Assembly (NCBI RefSeq): GCF_006345805.1
Contig: NC_043007.1
Location: 44,516,001 to 44,580,000 of the forward strand
Length of the DNA: 64,000 bases
Source: Octopus sinensis
Lineage: Eukaryota
Direction: 5' to 3'
In this document: piece by piece, positions 1 through 61,610 of the stretch
Layout of the letters: each line of letters begins with the position of its first letter
Numbering within the stretch: position 1 is the first letter of the stretch
Position numbers and translations under genes: made by a program
Notes under the pieces: generated by a model
What the model was told of the DNA's origin: nothing
Databases searched by the model: none
Seen by the model: the letters and a program-made list of their open reading frames with translations, nothing else

Positions 1-128
1 GTACAAGGCCTGAAATTTTAAAGGAAGAGAGGGGTTACTCAGTCAGTTTGACCCTGGAAGGACGAAAAGCAGAGTCGATCTTGGACGAATTTGAACTCAG
101 AACTTAAAGACAGACAAACTGCCAGCAT
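1..128 (-). mobile_element. Decayed tRNA-derived SINE (family A), partial
   Basis: Reverse complement resembles the copy at 4154-4381 (gctggcag head, ttctgagttcaaattc B-box region, cttttcgtccttcc core) with the alternative aaaatttcaggccttgtac tail. Confidence 0.7.
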
Positions 129-209
129 TTCAGCTGATATACCCTCCAGCCATCTTCAGGTGTCTTGGGGAAATTTCGAACCTGGATTCCCATTCCTAAG
201 ATTGGAAGT

Positions 210-252
210 CCACCTGAAGATTGTCGATCAGGACAAGAAACAATTGTAGTGG
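210..252 (+). ncRNA. Minimal type-I hammerhead ribozyme (Penelope type)
   Basis: ccac-CTGAAGA-ttgtc(gatcag)gacaa-GAAA-caattg-TA-gtgg: canonical core, perfect 5-bp stem II, palindromic stem III, GUA cleavage triplet, 4-bp stem I. Confidence 0.75.
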
Positions 253-689
253 CGGTTTTTTTGACTTTTTATTAAAATTTTATGTATTGATTAAGTCTTT
301 CCTTGTTTGTTTTGCAAAATAGTGGTTTTGTCTCTAATAATATTATATAATATTTTACTATAAAATTGGATTTAATCCTAAATCTGAGTTTTTCCCTGTA
401 AATTTGGATTTATTCCCTAATATTTATTATATATATATATATATATATATGTCACACAACACATCACATCACACCACCACGCATATACTAGCACTGATCA
501 CTTCCCAGCCCCACATTTTCACACCTACACATACACACATGCACACATGAAGGTCACCAGCCCTCTTCCACATGCACATACATACACTCTTATACACATG
601 CACGCGCACCTTCGTTTTGGGATCACCACTACTTTATTATCTCCCCTTCTTCCTAGCTCTCCTGTGTGACCCTTCTGTCTGGCATTCGC

Positions 690-878
690 CATGATAGATC
701 GCTAGCCACTACACATTCTTTATTTTCACTCCTTGTTTCTTTCTGTGTTCCTTTCTGTGGAAGAGCGTAGGCTCGAAACATTAAAGACTTTTTTCACTTC
801 CCAAGCGTTAAACTAATACATCTGTTTGTTGTCTACACCACCTGTCTTCATTTTTTGTTTTTTGTGAATTCTCCCCTA
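690..878 (+). mobile_element. Short Penelope pLTR-like fragment with degenerate hammerhead motif
   Basis: ggaagagcgtaggctcGAAAC at 759-779 (stem gagc/gctc), T-rich tail running into (TA)n. Confidence 0.4.
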
Positions 879-1662
879 TATATATGTGTGTATATATATA
901 TATATATATATATATATATATATATATATATATAGGCAGTGCCCCAGCATGGCCACAGTCTAATCACTGAAACAAGTAAAATATGTAGAAGGTACCTGTG
1001 TGCATGTATGTCTGTGAGAAGGAAGGATTTGGAAGAAGTAGGGTGGTGGTTAATTGTAGGAGTTGTCTATCATGGTCAACAATCCATGTAGCATTATGAA
1101 TTACTTAGGTATGTAAAGAATGTGAGTAGGGAGTAAATGAAATAGTTGTGTTAGGGATGGGACAAGAAGAAAACTTGACCTGTGGGTGAATGTGTAACGG
1201 CTATCTATCTATCTATACACTCATACATATATACGTACATACATACATACATACATACATACATACATACATACATACATCATGAATGCATACATATACA
1301 TACACAATAAATTACTTGTTCTCAAACCTTAGAAGGCTTCTATTAAATTAATGTCATCAGTGAGATGAGAAAAGATTTACTAACAAAATAATCTTCTGTT
1401 CTATTTATGAGTGTGTGTATGCATGTGTGTGTGAGTGTATGTATGTATGTATGTATTAAAAATTCTTGTTTGTAAAGAGACTAAATCACTGTAGGTGGCC
1501 AAGACAATGGAGTGCCAAGTAGAATATATTAAAGTTTAAAGTTGAGATAAGATAAGAACATTCCTAATTTACCCAGCAACATTCTTTATATATTTGATGA
1601 ATGCGAATATACATAATTTATAATATTATTTGTAATGTATATGACATCTGAGACCATATAGT

Positions 1663-57800: not shown

Positions 57801-58259
57801 TGATAGAGGGAGAAGCACAAGTTTCTTGTAATAGAGGAGATACATGGATACTCCAAATTATATAAGGGTGGGTGGAAGTGGCTAAAAAGAAGATTGAGAT
57901 GCAATACATATATTGCATGTAAGTTCAGAATTGCCTTGTAATCAAAGATTAATGATGCATTATTTATGATGCATCATTAAGTCATGTGAGAAGGCTAATT
58001 TCCTCAACCATACACTCTTTCCATGGTAGCAGCTGAATGCTGCTTATTATCCTTAATATTTTGTTGTTTCTTCAGTTACAGAATATTTTATTCTCCAATG
58101 TGACATGTAGAATCAATTTTTCATTTTTCTTTTGTAGCTTTTTTTTTCATATACACATAAGTATGTGTGTACGTACACACACACAGACACACACCATCAC
58201 CATCCATCCATCTATCCATCCATCCATCCATCCATTTATCCATCCATCCATAAATATAT

Positions 58260-58790
58260 AGTATGAAATACTACCTACCACTGAGGCACAATATAGATGT
58301 AAAGACTGTTTACAATGCTATCTGCAGGAAGGTCTGCCCTGACATATACATGAAAGGCATGGCAGAATTAGCTGGTATTCATACATTTAAGAACAAAGAA
58401 TACTGGTGGAACACCCCAATAAAAACATTAACTCGGTGCAAACATAGCAGATGTGATATTGCTCTTTGAGACAGGGAACAAAAGTCATGCACTGTTGTAA
58501 AGGTCAGCTGGTCAGTGGATGTGAATGTACAATCAAAAGTTCAAGAAAAAGAGAAGATTTATGGTGAATTAATGTGGAACATACAGTTATTGAACCCTGA
58601 CTATGAATTCATACTTGTACCTATCATCATAGGTGCATTAGGTTATGTACCTACAAATCTGCAAAAAACCCAGAAATACTTGGTTTCACGAAAAAAGGAT
58701 GAAAGAAACTGACATGGATTCTCCAAATCCAATCTATTTGTGGGATAGTAAAATTTTATAAGACATTTGAAAAATTCTCCATCTGAGATT
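58260..58790 (+). pseudogene. RLE-type (R4/NeSL-like) LINE endonuclease remnant
   Basis: YLPLRHN...YWWNTPIKT...CKHSRCDIAL...EKEKIYGEL...VPIIIGALGYVP; partial related piece at 59059-59150. Confidence 0.7.
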
Positions 58791-59349
58791 CTTATGTGAA
58801 CAGATGCACACACTTGAGTGTATACATTGACAGTTCAACCAATACATTAACTCTCTTAACTCAAAAAGTCTTGTTGCTTTGTTAGTGACTGGCTTGAACT
58901 CTCTCACAAAGAACTTTAATAAAATTAAAGGAAAATCATATGTACATACATGCAAACACCCACACACATATATATGTACAAACGTACATATATACATATC
59001 TTCATCCCTCCATCCATCTCTCTCTCCATCTATACATACTTACATCACAAGAAATTTTGGTGGAGTATTCCCATCAAACTTCAACCAAGTGCAAGCAAAA
59101 TGGACCTGACATTGTTATTTAGGACAGAAATATAAAGTCATGCACTGCAGATATGAACATTATCTTTCAAATCCAGTGAGAAGCAGAATATCTTTCTTTT
59201 ATTTGTTGCAGTCATTAGACTGCAGCCATGCTGGGCTACTGCCTTTAAGTGTTTATTGTACAAATTGACCACAATGCTATATATATATATAATATATATA
59301 TATATATATATATATATATATATACATATATTTCTGCATGTTTAAAGTA

Positions 59350-60995
59350 ACAGTTTTAGAAAAAAACCTTTGGTTTCACATCTAGCATGAAGTAGACATA
59401 TCTTCAGTTTCTCTAAATGATAACTGTTCTCTGCAAAGTATGTCAGTGATAGTTGACGAAATATTCCCCTGAAAAAATTATGATTGGGCGAGTTGTCTTC
59501 CTTCACTTGATAGCTAGGTTTTCTAATCTTGAAGTAAAAATTTCTGAAAATGTGGCTTCTGTCTTGGAGTTCAGGTAGCCTCCTGGCTAACGTGAGTTCA
59601 TAAGGAATATGCATTTTTCTGCCACACACAATTTACATAGTCTTGTTCCATTGCAATAGGGTCCACCAGTTTCTAGTAATTTCCACCTGACGCTAAAGGG
59701 TGTGTAATCATTCTTTAGGTGCCATACATGTGCTGTGAGTGTCATTGTGTTGCATCTCTCCGGGACCCTGAAAGAAGATCTGTGGTTGTTCAGGTGAATT
59801 TTAAATTTAGATTCACAAGATCCAACATAAATTTTAGTGTGTGTCCCTGTGTTGGCATTGATGTTACTGATATTTTGATGTTACATTGGCCATCCACTGG
59901 TTTAGGAGTGCTAAGTAATTTTTTCTTAACATTGGGTGCACAACTGAAAGAGATCTTTAAATTATGTCTTTTAAAGATCTTTCTATATTTGTGTGATCAT
60001 GTGAAATGCTTATCAACCAACCTAAGAAAATTGGTCAAACTAAAGTGTTTGACCTGTGCAATAGGTGTTCAACAGCATATAGTAAACGAATATGAAAAAA
60101 AAATGCGCGCTGGTGAACGGGGGAGCAGGGGAGAGGACTCGGAAAATTCACATCAGCAATGTTCCGAGTCCTCTCACTACTTTCCTATCTGCCGGCGAAA
60201 CATTTTTCTTCATATTTGTATACTACACATTATTTTACATCTAGTACACTATTTGTTTTTCAGTTTTTATGATGGGGTGGTGGTGGCTGGGTGGGGTGAG
60301 GACTCGGATAATTCACACAATCGAGTAACCCCACTTTGACACCTGGTCACAAAAAGGAAAAAAAACCAACAAAAGTGTAATAGGTGTAAAACAACATGTA
60401 GTAAATGAATATGAAAAAAATGTACACTGGAAAACGGTGGGGGTGGGGAGAGGACTCGGAATATTCAGACCTTGATCTTTAAACTCCAGTGTTTGACCCA
60501 AATTTCTGGATTGTGTGAATTATTTGAGTCTGCACCCCCACCCACCTCCTGTAAAAAAAACTGTAAAACAAATAGTGTACTAGATGTACAATAATGTGTA
60601 GCAAACAAATATGAAGAAAAAAAGATTTCACCGACGAACGGGGAAGTGATGAGAGGACTTTGAACATTCCCGATGTGAATTTTCCGAGTCCTCTTCCCTG
60701 CCCCCATTCGCCAATATGCATTATTTTTTCATATTCGTTTACTACATGTTGTTGTACACCTATTGCACTATTTTTTGTTTTTTTTTGCTCGGGTCAAACA
60801 CTTTAGCTTGACTGAAAAATCTTATCTATGCATGTCCAGACGTTTAGGGAGAAGGGGGAAGCAAACCATATGGTTTTGCAGTGGTGTTTCCTTTTATGGT
60901 TGCTCGATTGTGGTATATATATTATATGGTCCTTGAACCTGCTGGCCGCTAGCACCTCATTGTAAGTGGGGGCTGCTGCGTCGAAAATATCTTTA
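59350..60995 (-). pseudogene. Penelope-like remnant (RT C-terminus, linker, GIY-YIG) split by a MITE
   Basis: IFDAAAPTYNEVL...IWFASPFSLNV..IDKIF|LRLVDKHF..HKYRKIFKRHNLKISFSC...YVGSCESKFKIHLNNHRSSF...CKLCVAEK. Confidence 0.85.
60033..60813. mobile_element. Foldback-type MITE with nested inverted subrepeats
   Basis: TIRs ggtcaaactaaagtgtttgacc / ggtcaaacactttagcttgact; 7-bp near-TSD gaaaatt / gaaaaat; repeated gaggactcgga.aattcaca and aataggtgt...gaatatgaaaaaaa modules. Confidence 0.8.
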
Positions 60996-61125
60996 TATAT
61001 ATATATACAATATATATATTGTATATATATATATATATATATATATATATATATATATATATATATATATATATATATATATAATATATATATATATATT
61101 ATATATATATATATATATATATATA

Positions 61126-61610
61126 ATTAATAGTTATTGCCATACTAATATGGCATTCTTAAAAATAAGAATAAAGCTGTCGCTGATTAGCTACATGAAG
61201 CCATTGCCTCAAGCTAGCTACTTGACACACAAACTGCGTCCGTTATTAAACCTTCGAACAGGGGAGGTCAGCCGCTTCAACCTGCTAGTCCGACAGCTAC
61301 AGACATGTTTCAGTGTTGTTGCCCCTTCTCAATGCAGCGTAGTCAGACCTGCAGGTGTTGCTACTGAAACATGTCTGTAGCTGTCGGACTAGCAGGTTGA
61401 AGCGGCTGACCTCCCCTGTTCGAAGGTTTAATAACGAACGCAGTTTGTGTGTCAAGTAGCTAGCTTGAGGCGATGGCTTCATGGAGCTAATCAGCGACAG
61501 CTTTATTCTTATTTTTAAGAATGCCATATTAGTATGGCGATAACTATTAATTTCCAGAAACGCTGTCGTAATCTCTTTTAAAGAGACTTAGTAATTTTAA
61601 TATTTCTATT
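61126..61610. mobile_element. Palindromic hammerhead-bearing element between two (TA)n tracts
   Basis: About 190-bp arms 61126-61314 / 61363-61551 with few mismatches; hammerhead spans the left arm and spacer. Confidence 0.9.
61296..61338 (-). ncRNA. Type-I hammerhead ribozyme, U3-A8 variant
   Basis: gctgca-TTGAGAA-gggg caacaa cact-GAAA-catg-TC-tgtagc: 6-bp stem I, palindromic stem III, GUC triplet; one mismatch in stem II. Confidence 0.7.

Follow-up and report, generated by a model that had tools for sequence, protein, structure and literature searches.

Minimal hammerhead ribozymes have been described in the pseudo-LTRs of metazoan Penelope-like elements (PMC4209133; this and the other sources are cited for the sections that deal with the points in question). 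In D. virilis, the intron ends at helix I, and a circle model was proposed (PMC4209133); moreover, genomic copies of D. virilis Penelope keep the intron, and an antisense template has been suggested (PMC2377424, PMC3846280). For the Anolis Poseidon element PAc, in vitro work demonstrated two internal start sites, cutting and extension of both DNA strands, and the use of uncut RNA (PMC11167929). In addition, an origin of retrozymes from Penelope-like elements has been proposed (PMC7229834; bioRxiv 10.64898/2026.07.22.740005). Hammerheads in Penelope-like elements, retrozymes and internal priming are, in other words, already published.

The window analyzed here is a stretch of 64,000 nt of the Octopus sinensis genome (contig NC_043007.1), in which the original prediction listed 15 hammerhead sites, most of them in short, ORF-free units at (TA)n tracts, and suggested that these may be retrozyme-like elements or solo pLTRs mobilized by GIY-YIG Penelope elements. 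About a dozen families of mobile elements that insert at TA repeats carry the motifs. They share with the set described in PMC4209133 the type-I fold, the short palindromic stem III (palindromic, as predicted, in families A, B, C, E, F, H and L), U3-A8 covariation (U3-A8 cores in B, C and E), an extra base between positions 9 and 10.1, and the coexistence of many unrelated families in one genome, mostly as single motifs together with close inverted pairs. Unlike the cores in the cited sections of that report, families G and H have U4C cores, and family I has a non-canonical but hammerhead-shaped CUGUNGAA core. Furthermore, whereas single motifs are taken there as probably truncated elements, here they appear to be partly closed monomers and partly spliced leader copies.

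Inserts of the window

For 14 of the 15 listed sites, the repeat family concerned has a hammerhead fold, while no core could be established for site 3543 (Table 1). The list was not complete, as a family P hammerhead at 59407 on the minus strand and a family C fragment had been overlooked, and the site at 37821, described as partial, lies in a family D copy with a complete hammerhead. The association with (TA)n tracts was borne out: a (TA)4+ tract lies no more than 260 nt downstream, on the motif's own strand, at 14 of 16 sites, whereas 21% of positions drawn at random have one (p ~2e-8 in a binomial test that treats sites as independent). Units are short and ORF-free in the case of B, D and H, but a broken GIY-YIG frame is present both in the ~1.2-kb E copy and in the ~1.65-kb P copy. 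Both B copies bear point damage.

Table 1. Repeat copies associated with hammerhead motifs, in coordinates of the window; "site" refers to the position given in the original prediction.
Feature	Position	Strand	Remarks
Family L hammerhead fragment	128..200	-	Core 159-153; another repeat truncates it after GAAA
Family A exon 2 / pseudo-LTR, Hydra-type	201..430	+	5' boundary exactly at splice acceptor; hammerhead intact (210-252, with core 214-220 and palindromic stem III; cleavage predicted after 248); 3' boundary at start site 2, followed by (TA)n
Family I repeat	452..876	+	Decayed; hammerhead-shaped non-canonical core near 755 (site 759)
Family J repeat	3515..3630	+	Real repeat, 2 other copies in loci examined; core not established (site 3543)
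Family C copy	7182..7670	-	U3-A8 hammerhead, core at 7260 (site 7223)
Family K copy	12415..12730	+	Near-complete hammerhead at 12584
Family C fragment	18403..18493	-	Absent from the original prediction
Family C copy	21616..21815	+	Decayed hammerhead, core near 21686 (site 21685); ends at (TA)n
Family F, Hydra-type 3' pseudo-LTR	29720..30245	+	Core 29996 intact (site 29992); ~70-nt domain II, stem base decayed
Family D, second subfamily	37676..37962	-	Complete hammerhead, core 37858 (site 37821)
Family B, older subfamily	38034..38330	-	Damaged U3-A8 core near 38243 (site 38206)
Family H	46255..46726	.	Two head-to-head arms, one per fixed end; hammerhead 3' half only (site 46385)
Family G	48006..48226	.	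Two head-to-head arms; minus arm with complete U4C hammerhead, core near 48126 (site 48096)
Family D	48587..48835	+	Short inverted 5' arm; core 48649 with G8A, probably dead (site 48645)
Family E, 5'-truncated Neptune-type element (putative)	50140..51352	+	Broken CX4CxxC linker and GIY-YIG, 3' UTR, U3-A8 hammerhead 51264 (site 51260), (TA)n
Family P, 5'-truncated Hydra-type element (putative)	59332..60990	-	Broken RT end, GIY-YIG (59832-59617), hammerhead 59407, (TA)n
Family B	61125..61610	.	Head-to-head pair of arms flanked by (TA)n tracts, one arm per fixed end; hammerhead on minus arm, core 61333 (site 61296)

Family A and its intron-less copies

On the motifs of its protein, family A is a young autonomous Hydra-type element. 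In loci L276 and L274, a ribozyme is followed 255 nt on by an ATG, an RT with YRDD, a GIY-YIG domain, a UTR of ~4 kb and a second ribozyme, and no copy examined has an unbroken frame. Domain calls, like the Hydra placement, were made by reading motifs against PMC8557442; searches of Pfam and PDB with the A protein returned no RT or GIY-YIG match. Family A shares with the Hydra clade (PMC8557442) the DKT motif, a CxCX5C linker, the CxxC and CxH motifs flanking conserved E and N, the use of (TA)n as target and a canonical ribozyme, and no CCHH is present. It differs in having KWK instead of RWK, ~6.3 kb between ribozymes (L276) where the clade is generally <3 kb, a repetitive ~4-kb UTR and an N-rich linker. 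The C-terminal endonuclease and the canonical ribozyme rule out assignment to Naiad.

A GT-AG intron (donor AAA/GTATGT, acceptor TTTTAG/A) ends 13 nt before the ribozyme core of A, and exact matches to the junctions numbered 55 spliced and 1042 unspliced copies, the spliced pattern covering one A subfamily. All 55 spliced copies have their 5' end at a single initiator-like site or slightly within it, limited by the A of TTCACTT; the first exon measures 14-28 nt in 54 of them, and the 55th begins at the same A in an upstream UTR repeat and fits two splices. Every one ends before the ATG, 53 at +149 or +224-236, and none of the 55 contains the ORF. Among the head-to-head spliced pairs, 13 of 14 use one site per arm, the 14th having an internal deletion before site 1. 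Taken together, it is likely that the intron-less copies derive from the front end of the spliced mRNA, that is, from its capped leader, with the transcription start as read from cDNA ends. No spliced leader copies of Penelope-like elements were found in the literature searched. When one spliced copy was compared with four runs guessed to be RNA, one contig crossed the junction with 27 exon-1 letters, below the 31-letter threshold, and was counted as no evidence.

An unlikely alternative is that the intron-less copies descend from a single deleted or once-spliced genomic master, in which case they would say little on the normal template. They do belong almost wholly to one subfamily, and a copy starting at the initiator could retain an internal promoter; the subfamily bias, however, follows from the exact search pattern. 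Moreover, the spliced copies carry two haplotypes, each also present among unspliced copies, one copy has its start in the other UTR repeat and follows a different exon path, and the exact GT-AG ends show zero microhomology at the join.

Accepting spliced mRNA as the source, the template of these copies was sense RNA, since they are spliced. Family A and D. virilis Penelope have in common an internal initiator, a short first exon, an intron and head-to-head inverted ends (PMC2377424, PMC3846280), but, unlike in the D. virilis model, here it is spliced, hence sense, RNA that gave head-to-head inserts. The intron is kept in 22 of 22 ORF-bearing A copies with a readable acceptor; spliced products are thus missing among them, which suggests that propagation relies on another RNA as template. 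Five of the seven long ORF-bearing copies extend past the near start site, which is weak evidence because the UTR holds repeated start sites; only one locus, L303, clearly passes both.

The A copy of the window probably represents a further use of the same acceptor, which here abuts a donor in antisense family L (join between 200 and 201). The 128/214 pair would then be a retrocopy of an RNA in which the L donor was spliced to the A acceptor. GT follows the L breakpoint in four of five non-chimeric L arms, and the junction is identical in two unrelated loci. Segmental duplication was rejected as the origin of these two chimeras, as their flanks are unrelated and their A subfamilies differ. In locus L002 the L arm ends at the usual 3' end of L, which also fits insertion of a hybrid of two RNAs instead of splicing.

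Two local tandem derivatives of A, of 408 and 383 nt, were also found. Splicing was discarded as the source of the former, as no GT follows the ORF breakpoint; this derivative is restricted to a single locus. In the 383-nt derivative (locus L277), one junction occurs three times although the CUGAAGA half is missing, which means that ribozyme-made circles are not required for tandem arrays here. As for the original prediction, spliced 5' leader copies of an autonomous element are likely a third source of hammerhead units that it had not foreseen.

Coding families, non-coding monomers and ribozyme folds

By their motifs, families A, E, F and P classify as Penelope-like elements whose GIY-YIG endonuclease is C-terminal (EN+). 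What was recovered of E, F and P is limited to fragments or to the C-terminal part. Linker and endonuclease motifs place P and F in the Hydra clade, the evidence for F being fragmentary (endonuclease upstream in 2 of 25 loci); E would be Neptune-type by the CX4CxxC linker of the window copy, its RT not being recovered. Family C is open upstream for at least 730 nt, with no closure seen and no ORF upstream in 30 loci (~1.5 kb of flank each); a 1029-nt "monomer" was discarded because it includes host repeats. The inverted 5' copy expected of EN+ elements was also seen: in six families, the inverted partner lies always upstream, never downstream.

Families B, D and H form closed monomers of 363, 480 and 491 nt, with a GC content of 0.42, 0.33 and 0.35 and longest ATG frames of 40, 49 and 72 aa, respectively. 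Copies longer than one monomer were found 13, 7 and 5 times, and the pattern of two fixed ends in 25/26, 25/25 and 20/20 cases. No connected coding flank was detected in 30 B, 25 D and 20 H loci; an upstream RT or endonuclease match occurred in 0/30, 0/25 and 1/20, the latter 750 nt beyond the shared sequence. In size (363-491 nt), non-coding nature, GC content (33-42%), type-I hammerhead and tandem arrangement, they resemble metazoan non-LTR retrozymes (PMC7229834; bioRxiv 10.64898/2026.07.22.740005), and on these features they classify as such, namely as non-autonomous elements with one hammerhead per monomer. They differ from known retrozymes in being mostly dispersed copies of 0.5-2.5 turns, with inverted arms, two fixed ends at (TA)n and no long arrays, and they are known here from genomic DNA.

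The original prediction had named as one refuting outcome that every family is simply the truncated end of an autonomous Penelope element, which turned out to be the case for A, E, F and P but not for B, D and H. It is very improbable that 5'-truncated 3' ends of such elements explain everything, with nothing non-autonomous or spliced: this describes most A copies (the 1042 unspliced junctions) as well as E, F and P, and C is open-ended, but B, D and H close upon themselves, exceed one monomer and lack a connected coding flank in 75 loci, and 55 A copies lack exactly the intron. Even less credible is the opposite extreme, in which each unit is either a non-autonomous retrozyme or a solo pseudo-LTR. 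The retrozyme-like elements that were predicted do exist as B, D and H, which account for five of the 15 sites, and there are the two local tandem derivatives of A, but A, E, F and P are joined to RT/GIY-YIG frames, two of which lie in the window.

Regarding the ribozymes themselves, a strict type-I descriptor permitting 3-8 covariation gave four matches in the window (214+, 7260-, 37858- and 51264+), whereas 200 local dinucleotide shuffles averaged 0.065 and none reached four. A relaxed descriptor, tuned after the families had been seen, adds 12584+, 48649+ and 59407-, for seven matches against 0.91 in shuffles (maximum 5). Core, GAAA, UH and stem I were matched in 30/30 A, 29/30 B, 20/30 C, 23/25 D, 7/25 E, 15/25 F, 12/20 P and 17/20 H loci, genome matches being ranked by identity to the queries with 40 scored per search, which favours young, ribozyme-spanning copies. 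The assessment of the remaining families used the copies that happened to lie in other loci (G, 4 arms; I, 22; J, 2; K, 3; L, 7 arms), the G, K and L hammerheads being read from few copies; no canonical core was found in I, and none was established in J. Two A motifs cofolded yield an 8-bp intermolecular stem III (-22.4 vs 2 x -6.7 kcal/mol). An Rfam scan of the window gave no hammerhead family among the matches listed (150 of 199), which comprise microsatellite-driven microRNA matches and one tRNA only. Despite that scan, the damage to several window copies and the unconfirmed site 3543, chance matches in AT-rich, microsatellite-rich DNA have a negligible probability, given the shuffles, the cores and stems kept in family alignments, the compensatory stem changes between D subfamilies (37858 vs 48649 copies) and the three different palindromes in stem III of B. 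The hammerheads are thus confirmed as motifs and folds, and self-cleavage is predicted.

A proposed model with three RNA templates

Our best explanation overall, which we hold with good confidence, involves three kinds of RNA and covers A, B, D, E, F, H and P. Penelope-like RT/GIY-YIG enzymes would cut (TA)n and initiate cDNA synthesis internally, at two fixed positions shortly downstream of the ribozyme, with each DNA end of the cut priming one of the two arms. Their templates would be element RNA that is long and keeps its intron (A, E, F, P), the small non-coding monomers (B, D, H) and, likely, for A, the capped leader of spliced mRNA. Spliced copies would be templated by sense RNA uncut by its ribozyme, while the template of propagating copies may be unspliced RNA longer than one unit, which would be a circle made by the ribozyme or else the product of read-through of tandem copies. 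Judging from the shape of their insertions, B, D and H may be moved by borrowed Penelope-like enzymes. PAc and the window families share internal initiation at two sites and AT-rich targets, and PAc needs no ribozyme cleavage; its starts lie 111-118 nt inside the ORF, one 30-40-nt tail apart, and are described as not homologous to the target (PMC11167929), whereas the starts found here precede the ATG, are separated by 60-90 nt and are similar to the TA target.

More tentatively, the genome may record a Penelope cycle in which both ends of the TA cut are primed on sense RNA at two sites, capped spliced mRNA gives dead-end leader copies, ribozyme-made more-than-unit RNA propagates with its 3' intron, and the A acceptor captures foreign exons that end up in retrocopies such as 128-430. 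The 3' intron would stay in the propagating RNA because no last exon is left once the RNA is cut 48 nt past the acceptor, and such a cycle would account for the kept intron with no need for an antisense template.

Both the retrozymes and the motifs as such are new members of kinds already known. Nevertheless, intron keeping, head-to-head ends and ribozyme use are standing questions for Penelope-like elements, as raised in the cited sections of PMC8557442, PMC11167929 and PMC3846280, and the young element A allows separate counts of spliced and unspliced products. As B, D and H share its footprint, the link between retrozymes and their helper becomes testable; the spliced A copies, for their part, fix the template as sense RNA, together with the start site and two priming sites.

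Hammerhead motifs in the window

The strict descriptor recovered four type-I hammerheads in the window against 0.065 expected, a number reached in none of 200 shuffles, and a relaxed descriptor, adjusted only after the families were known, recovered seven against 0.91 expected by shuffling. As judged from sequence, family alignments are a stronger test of hammerhead reality than motif counts. Eight window pieces were searched against the 2.72-Gb animal genome, which is rich in microsatellites and in which the window spans G000:C11:44516001-44580000; each search drew on 269-2842 candidates and yielded 41-53 matches, with the best 40 scored, a procedure biased toward young copies spanning the ribozyme. 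Hammerhead core and stems are preserved across the alignments of the families from these searches, and five further families were assessed from copies present in the loci of other families' searches. The 3-8 pair covaries, being C-G in families A, D, F, G, H, K, L and P and U-A in B, C and E; moreover, stems II and III carry compensatory changes between the two D subfamilies, and the palindrome of stem III in B is preserved through three different sequences.

Overall, the motifs in the window are real and of mixed origin. The original prediction had claimed about ten hammerheads and listed 15 sites, 14 of which sit in families that share the hammerhead fold, the core of family I being non-canonical, while the site at 3543 was unconfirmed and one at 59407(-) had been overlooked. 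The proposed association with (TA)n was borne out, with (TA)4 or longer found within 260 nt downstream at 14 of 16 sites compared with 21% of random positions. Family I itself is abundant, with 22 copies met incidentally in the fetched loci; its hammerhead stems are kept around a CUGUNGAA core, and we read its motif as a dead or variant ribozyme. Family L differs from the other families in that its copies (L089, L256, L043, L073) have a (TAA)n spacer on the 5' side, where two arms meet head to head.

Repeat features in the window, with strand where called
Feature	Position (strand)	Remark
Family L fragment	128-200 (-)	directly upstream of the A copy
Family A pseudo-LTR	201-430 (+)	
Family I copy	452-876	
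Transposon remnants in translations	4752-5369, 6212-6897, 23295-23726, 24547-24939, 33097-35154, 61877-63371	presumably LINE ends and mariner/pogo-like transposases
tRNA-Met gene call	17589-17661	probably a SINE head; a related copy lies inverted near 35381-35548
LINE copies with RT frames	19554-21680 (-), 40558-43100 (+), 31248-31661 (+)	one with 708 codons open, which we take to be RTE-like
Family C copy	21616	adjoins the 5' end of LINE 19554-21680 (-)
Internally repeated sequence in the P element	59900-60780	about 750 nt, interrupting P between RT end and endonuclease

Coding elements and non-coding monomers

The earlier reading of these units as retrozyme-like elements or solo pseudo-LTRs holds for B, D and H, which are closed non-coding monomers, but not for A, E, F and P, which are attached to the coding frames of Penelope-like elements. 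Upstream of A, repetitive non-coding DNA extends for about 4 kb before a GIY-YIG and RT frame is reached; a full copy comprises a ribozyme, an ATG 255 nt further on, RT, endonuclease, UTR and a second ribozyme. Since Pfam and PDB gave nothing for the A domains, their assignment rests on motifs, which agree with those of the Hydra clade as outlined in PMC8557442, although A has KWK where the clade has RWK and is also longer. The family is young, as many copies are 99-100% identical across the query, and no unbroken frame was found among the fetched copies. A long asparagine-rich linker separates RT from endonuclease (L274:2249-3082, L036:4064-5515) and resembles the N-rich inserts described in PMC3846280. 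In P, the ribozyme immediately follows a Hydra-type endonuclease in the window copy and at 10 of 20 loci; an endonuclease of this type lies upstream of F at 2 of 25 loci, and in E a linker and endonuclease of Neptune type occur at 5 of 25, the window copy among them.

The monomers of B, D and H measure 363, 480 and 491 nt, with a GC content of 0.33-0.42 and a longest ATG frame of 72 aa, and no connected coding flank was found in the fetched loci. After removal of duplicates, copies longer than one monomer numbered 13/26, 7/25 and 5/20, respectively, and two clusters of 3' ends, 60-90 nt apart, hold nearly all copies (25/26, 25/25 and 20/20). In each of the six families tested, inverted partners were always on the upstream side and never on the downstream side. 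By their sequence, B, D and H fit non-LTR retrozymes, as outlined in PMC7229834, and the Penelope origin proposed for retrozymes (bioRxiv 10.64898/2026.07.22.740005). Ribozymes in Penelope-like elements, retrozymes and internal priming are already in print; the terms ribozyme, hammerhead and retrozyme are absent from the main text of an octopus repeat annotation (PMC13282606).

Spliced copies of family A and fusions at its acceptor

The UTR of A carries a GT-AG intron of 1115 nt, with the acceptor placed 13 nt upstream of the ribozyme core. Genome-wide, exact junctions were spliced in 55 copies versus unspliced in 1042, and all 55 were inspected. The first exon measures 14-28 nt in 54 of them; six start 27 nt before the junction, at the A of TTCACTT, which is initiator-like. 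Microhomology accounts for the single 28-nt exon and could also lengthen some 27-nt ones. The remaining copy starts at the same A within an upstream UTR repeat, compatible with two splices. All 55 stop before the ATG, 23 at +149 (site 1) and 30 at +224-236 (site 2), both sites being TA-like; in 13 of the 14 head-to-head pairs the two arms end at different sites, and the other pair is internally deleted before site 1. Two haplotypes occur among the spliced copies, each found unspliced too. Contigs from four sequencing runs presumed to be RNA gave no countable match across the spliced junction. In an ORF-start search (29 loci parsed), the intron was retained in 22/22 ORF-bearing copies with a readable acceptor. 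The near start site was passed in 5/7 A regions selected for long 5' repeats, and both in one (L303). A leader intron after an internal initiator is described in PMC2377424; among the main texts searched, few of them from subscription journals, none describes retrocopies of a spliced leader or inserts with one site per arm.

The window copy of A begins precisely at the acceptor, preceded by antisense L. An identical join exists at an unrelated locus, there with another A subfamily, and GT directly follows the L breakpoint in 4/5 ordinary L arms. The likeliest cause, which we consider probable, is a spliced read-through RNA that was later retrocopied. Alternatively, the join could be a hybrid of two RNA templates, as the L arm at locus L002 stops at the usual L end. 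Two more unrelated sequences are fused exactly at the A acceptor (L307, L310), and these partners are possibly captured exons.

A proposed replication mechanism

The mechanism proposed here derives from insert anatomy and from the portion of PMC11167929 describing an enzyme that cuts and extends both strands, uses two internal start sites and accepts uncut RNA. The endonuclease would open (TA)n. Downstream of the ribozyme the RNA has two TA-like sites, and each DNA end would prime at one of them. With spliced mRNA as template, cDNA synthesis would run out after 170-260 nt, at the RNA's 5' end, and the cDNAs would join head to head, giving dead-end copies, whereas ORF-bearing copies would be templated by unspliced, more-than-unit RNA. 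The latter may be a read-through of tandem copies, or a circle, as proposed in the account given by PMC4209133; a circle does not appear to be required, as a 383-nt A derivative missing half of the ribozyme core still repeats one junction three times. That tandem derivative (L277, G000:C4:63.54 Mb) and an independent one of 408 nt (L003/L004, G000:C2:66.80 Mb) share an ORF breakpoint at codon 40-41, near the 111-118-nt start region that PMC11167929 gives for the Anolis element, and a third start site may possibly exist there in A.

Every spliced A copy crosses the predicted ribozyme cut site, so their template would have been uncut or re-ligated. Moreover, because these copies are spliced, sense RNA would have served as their template, which, for these inserts, argues against the antisense model as set out in PMC3846280.
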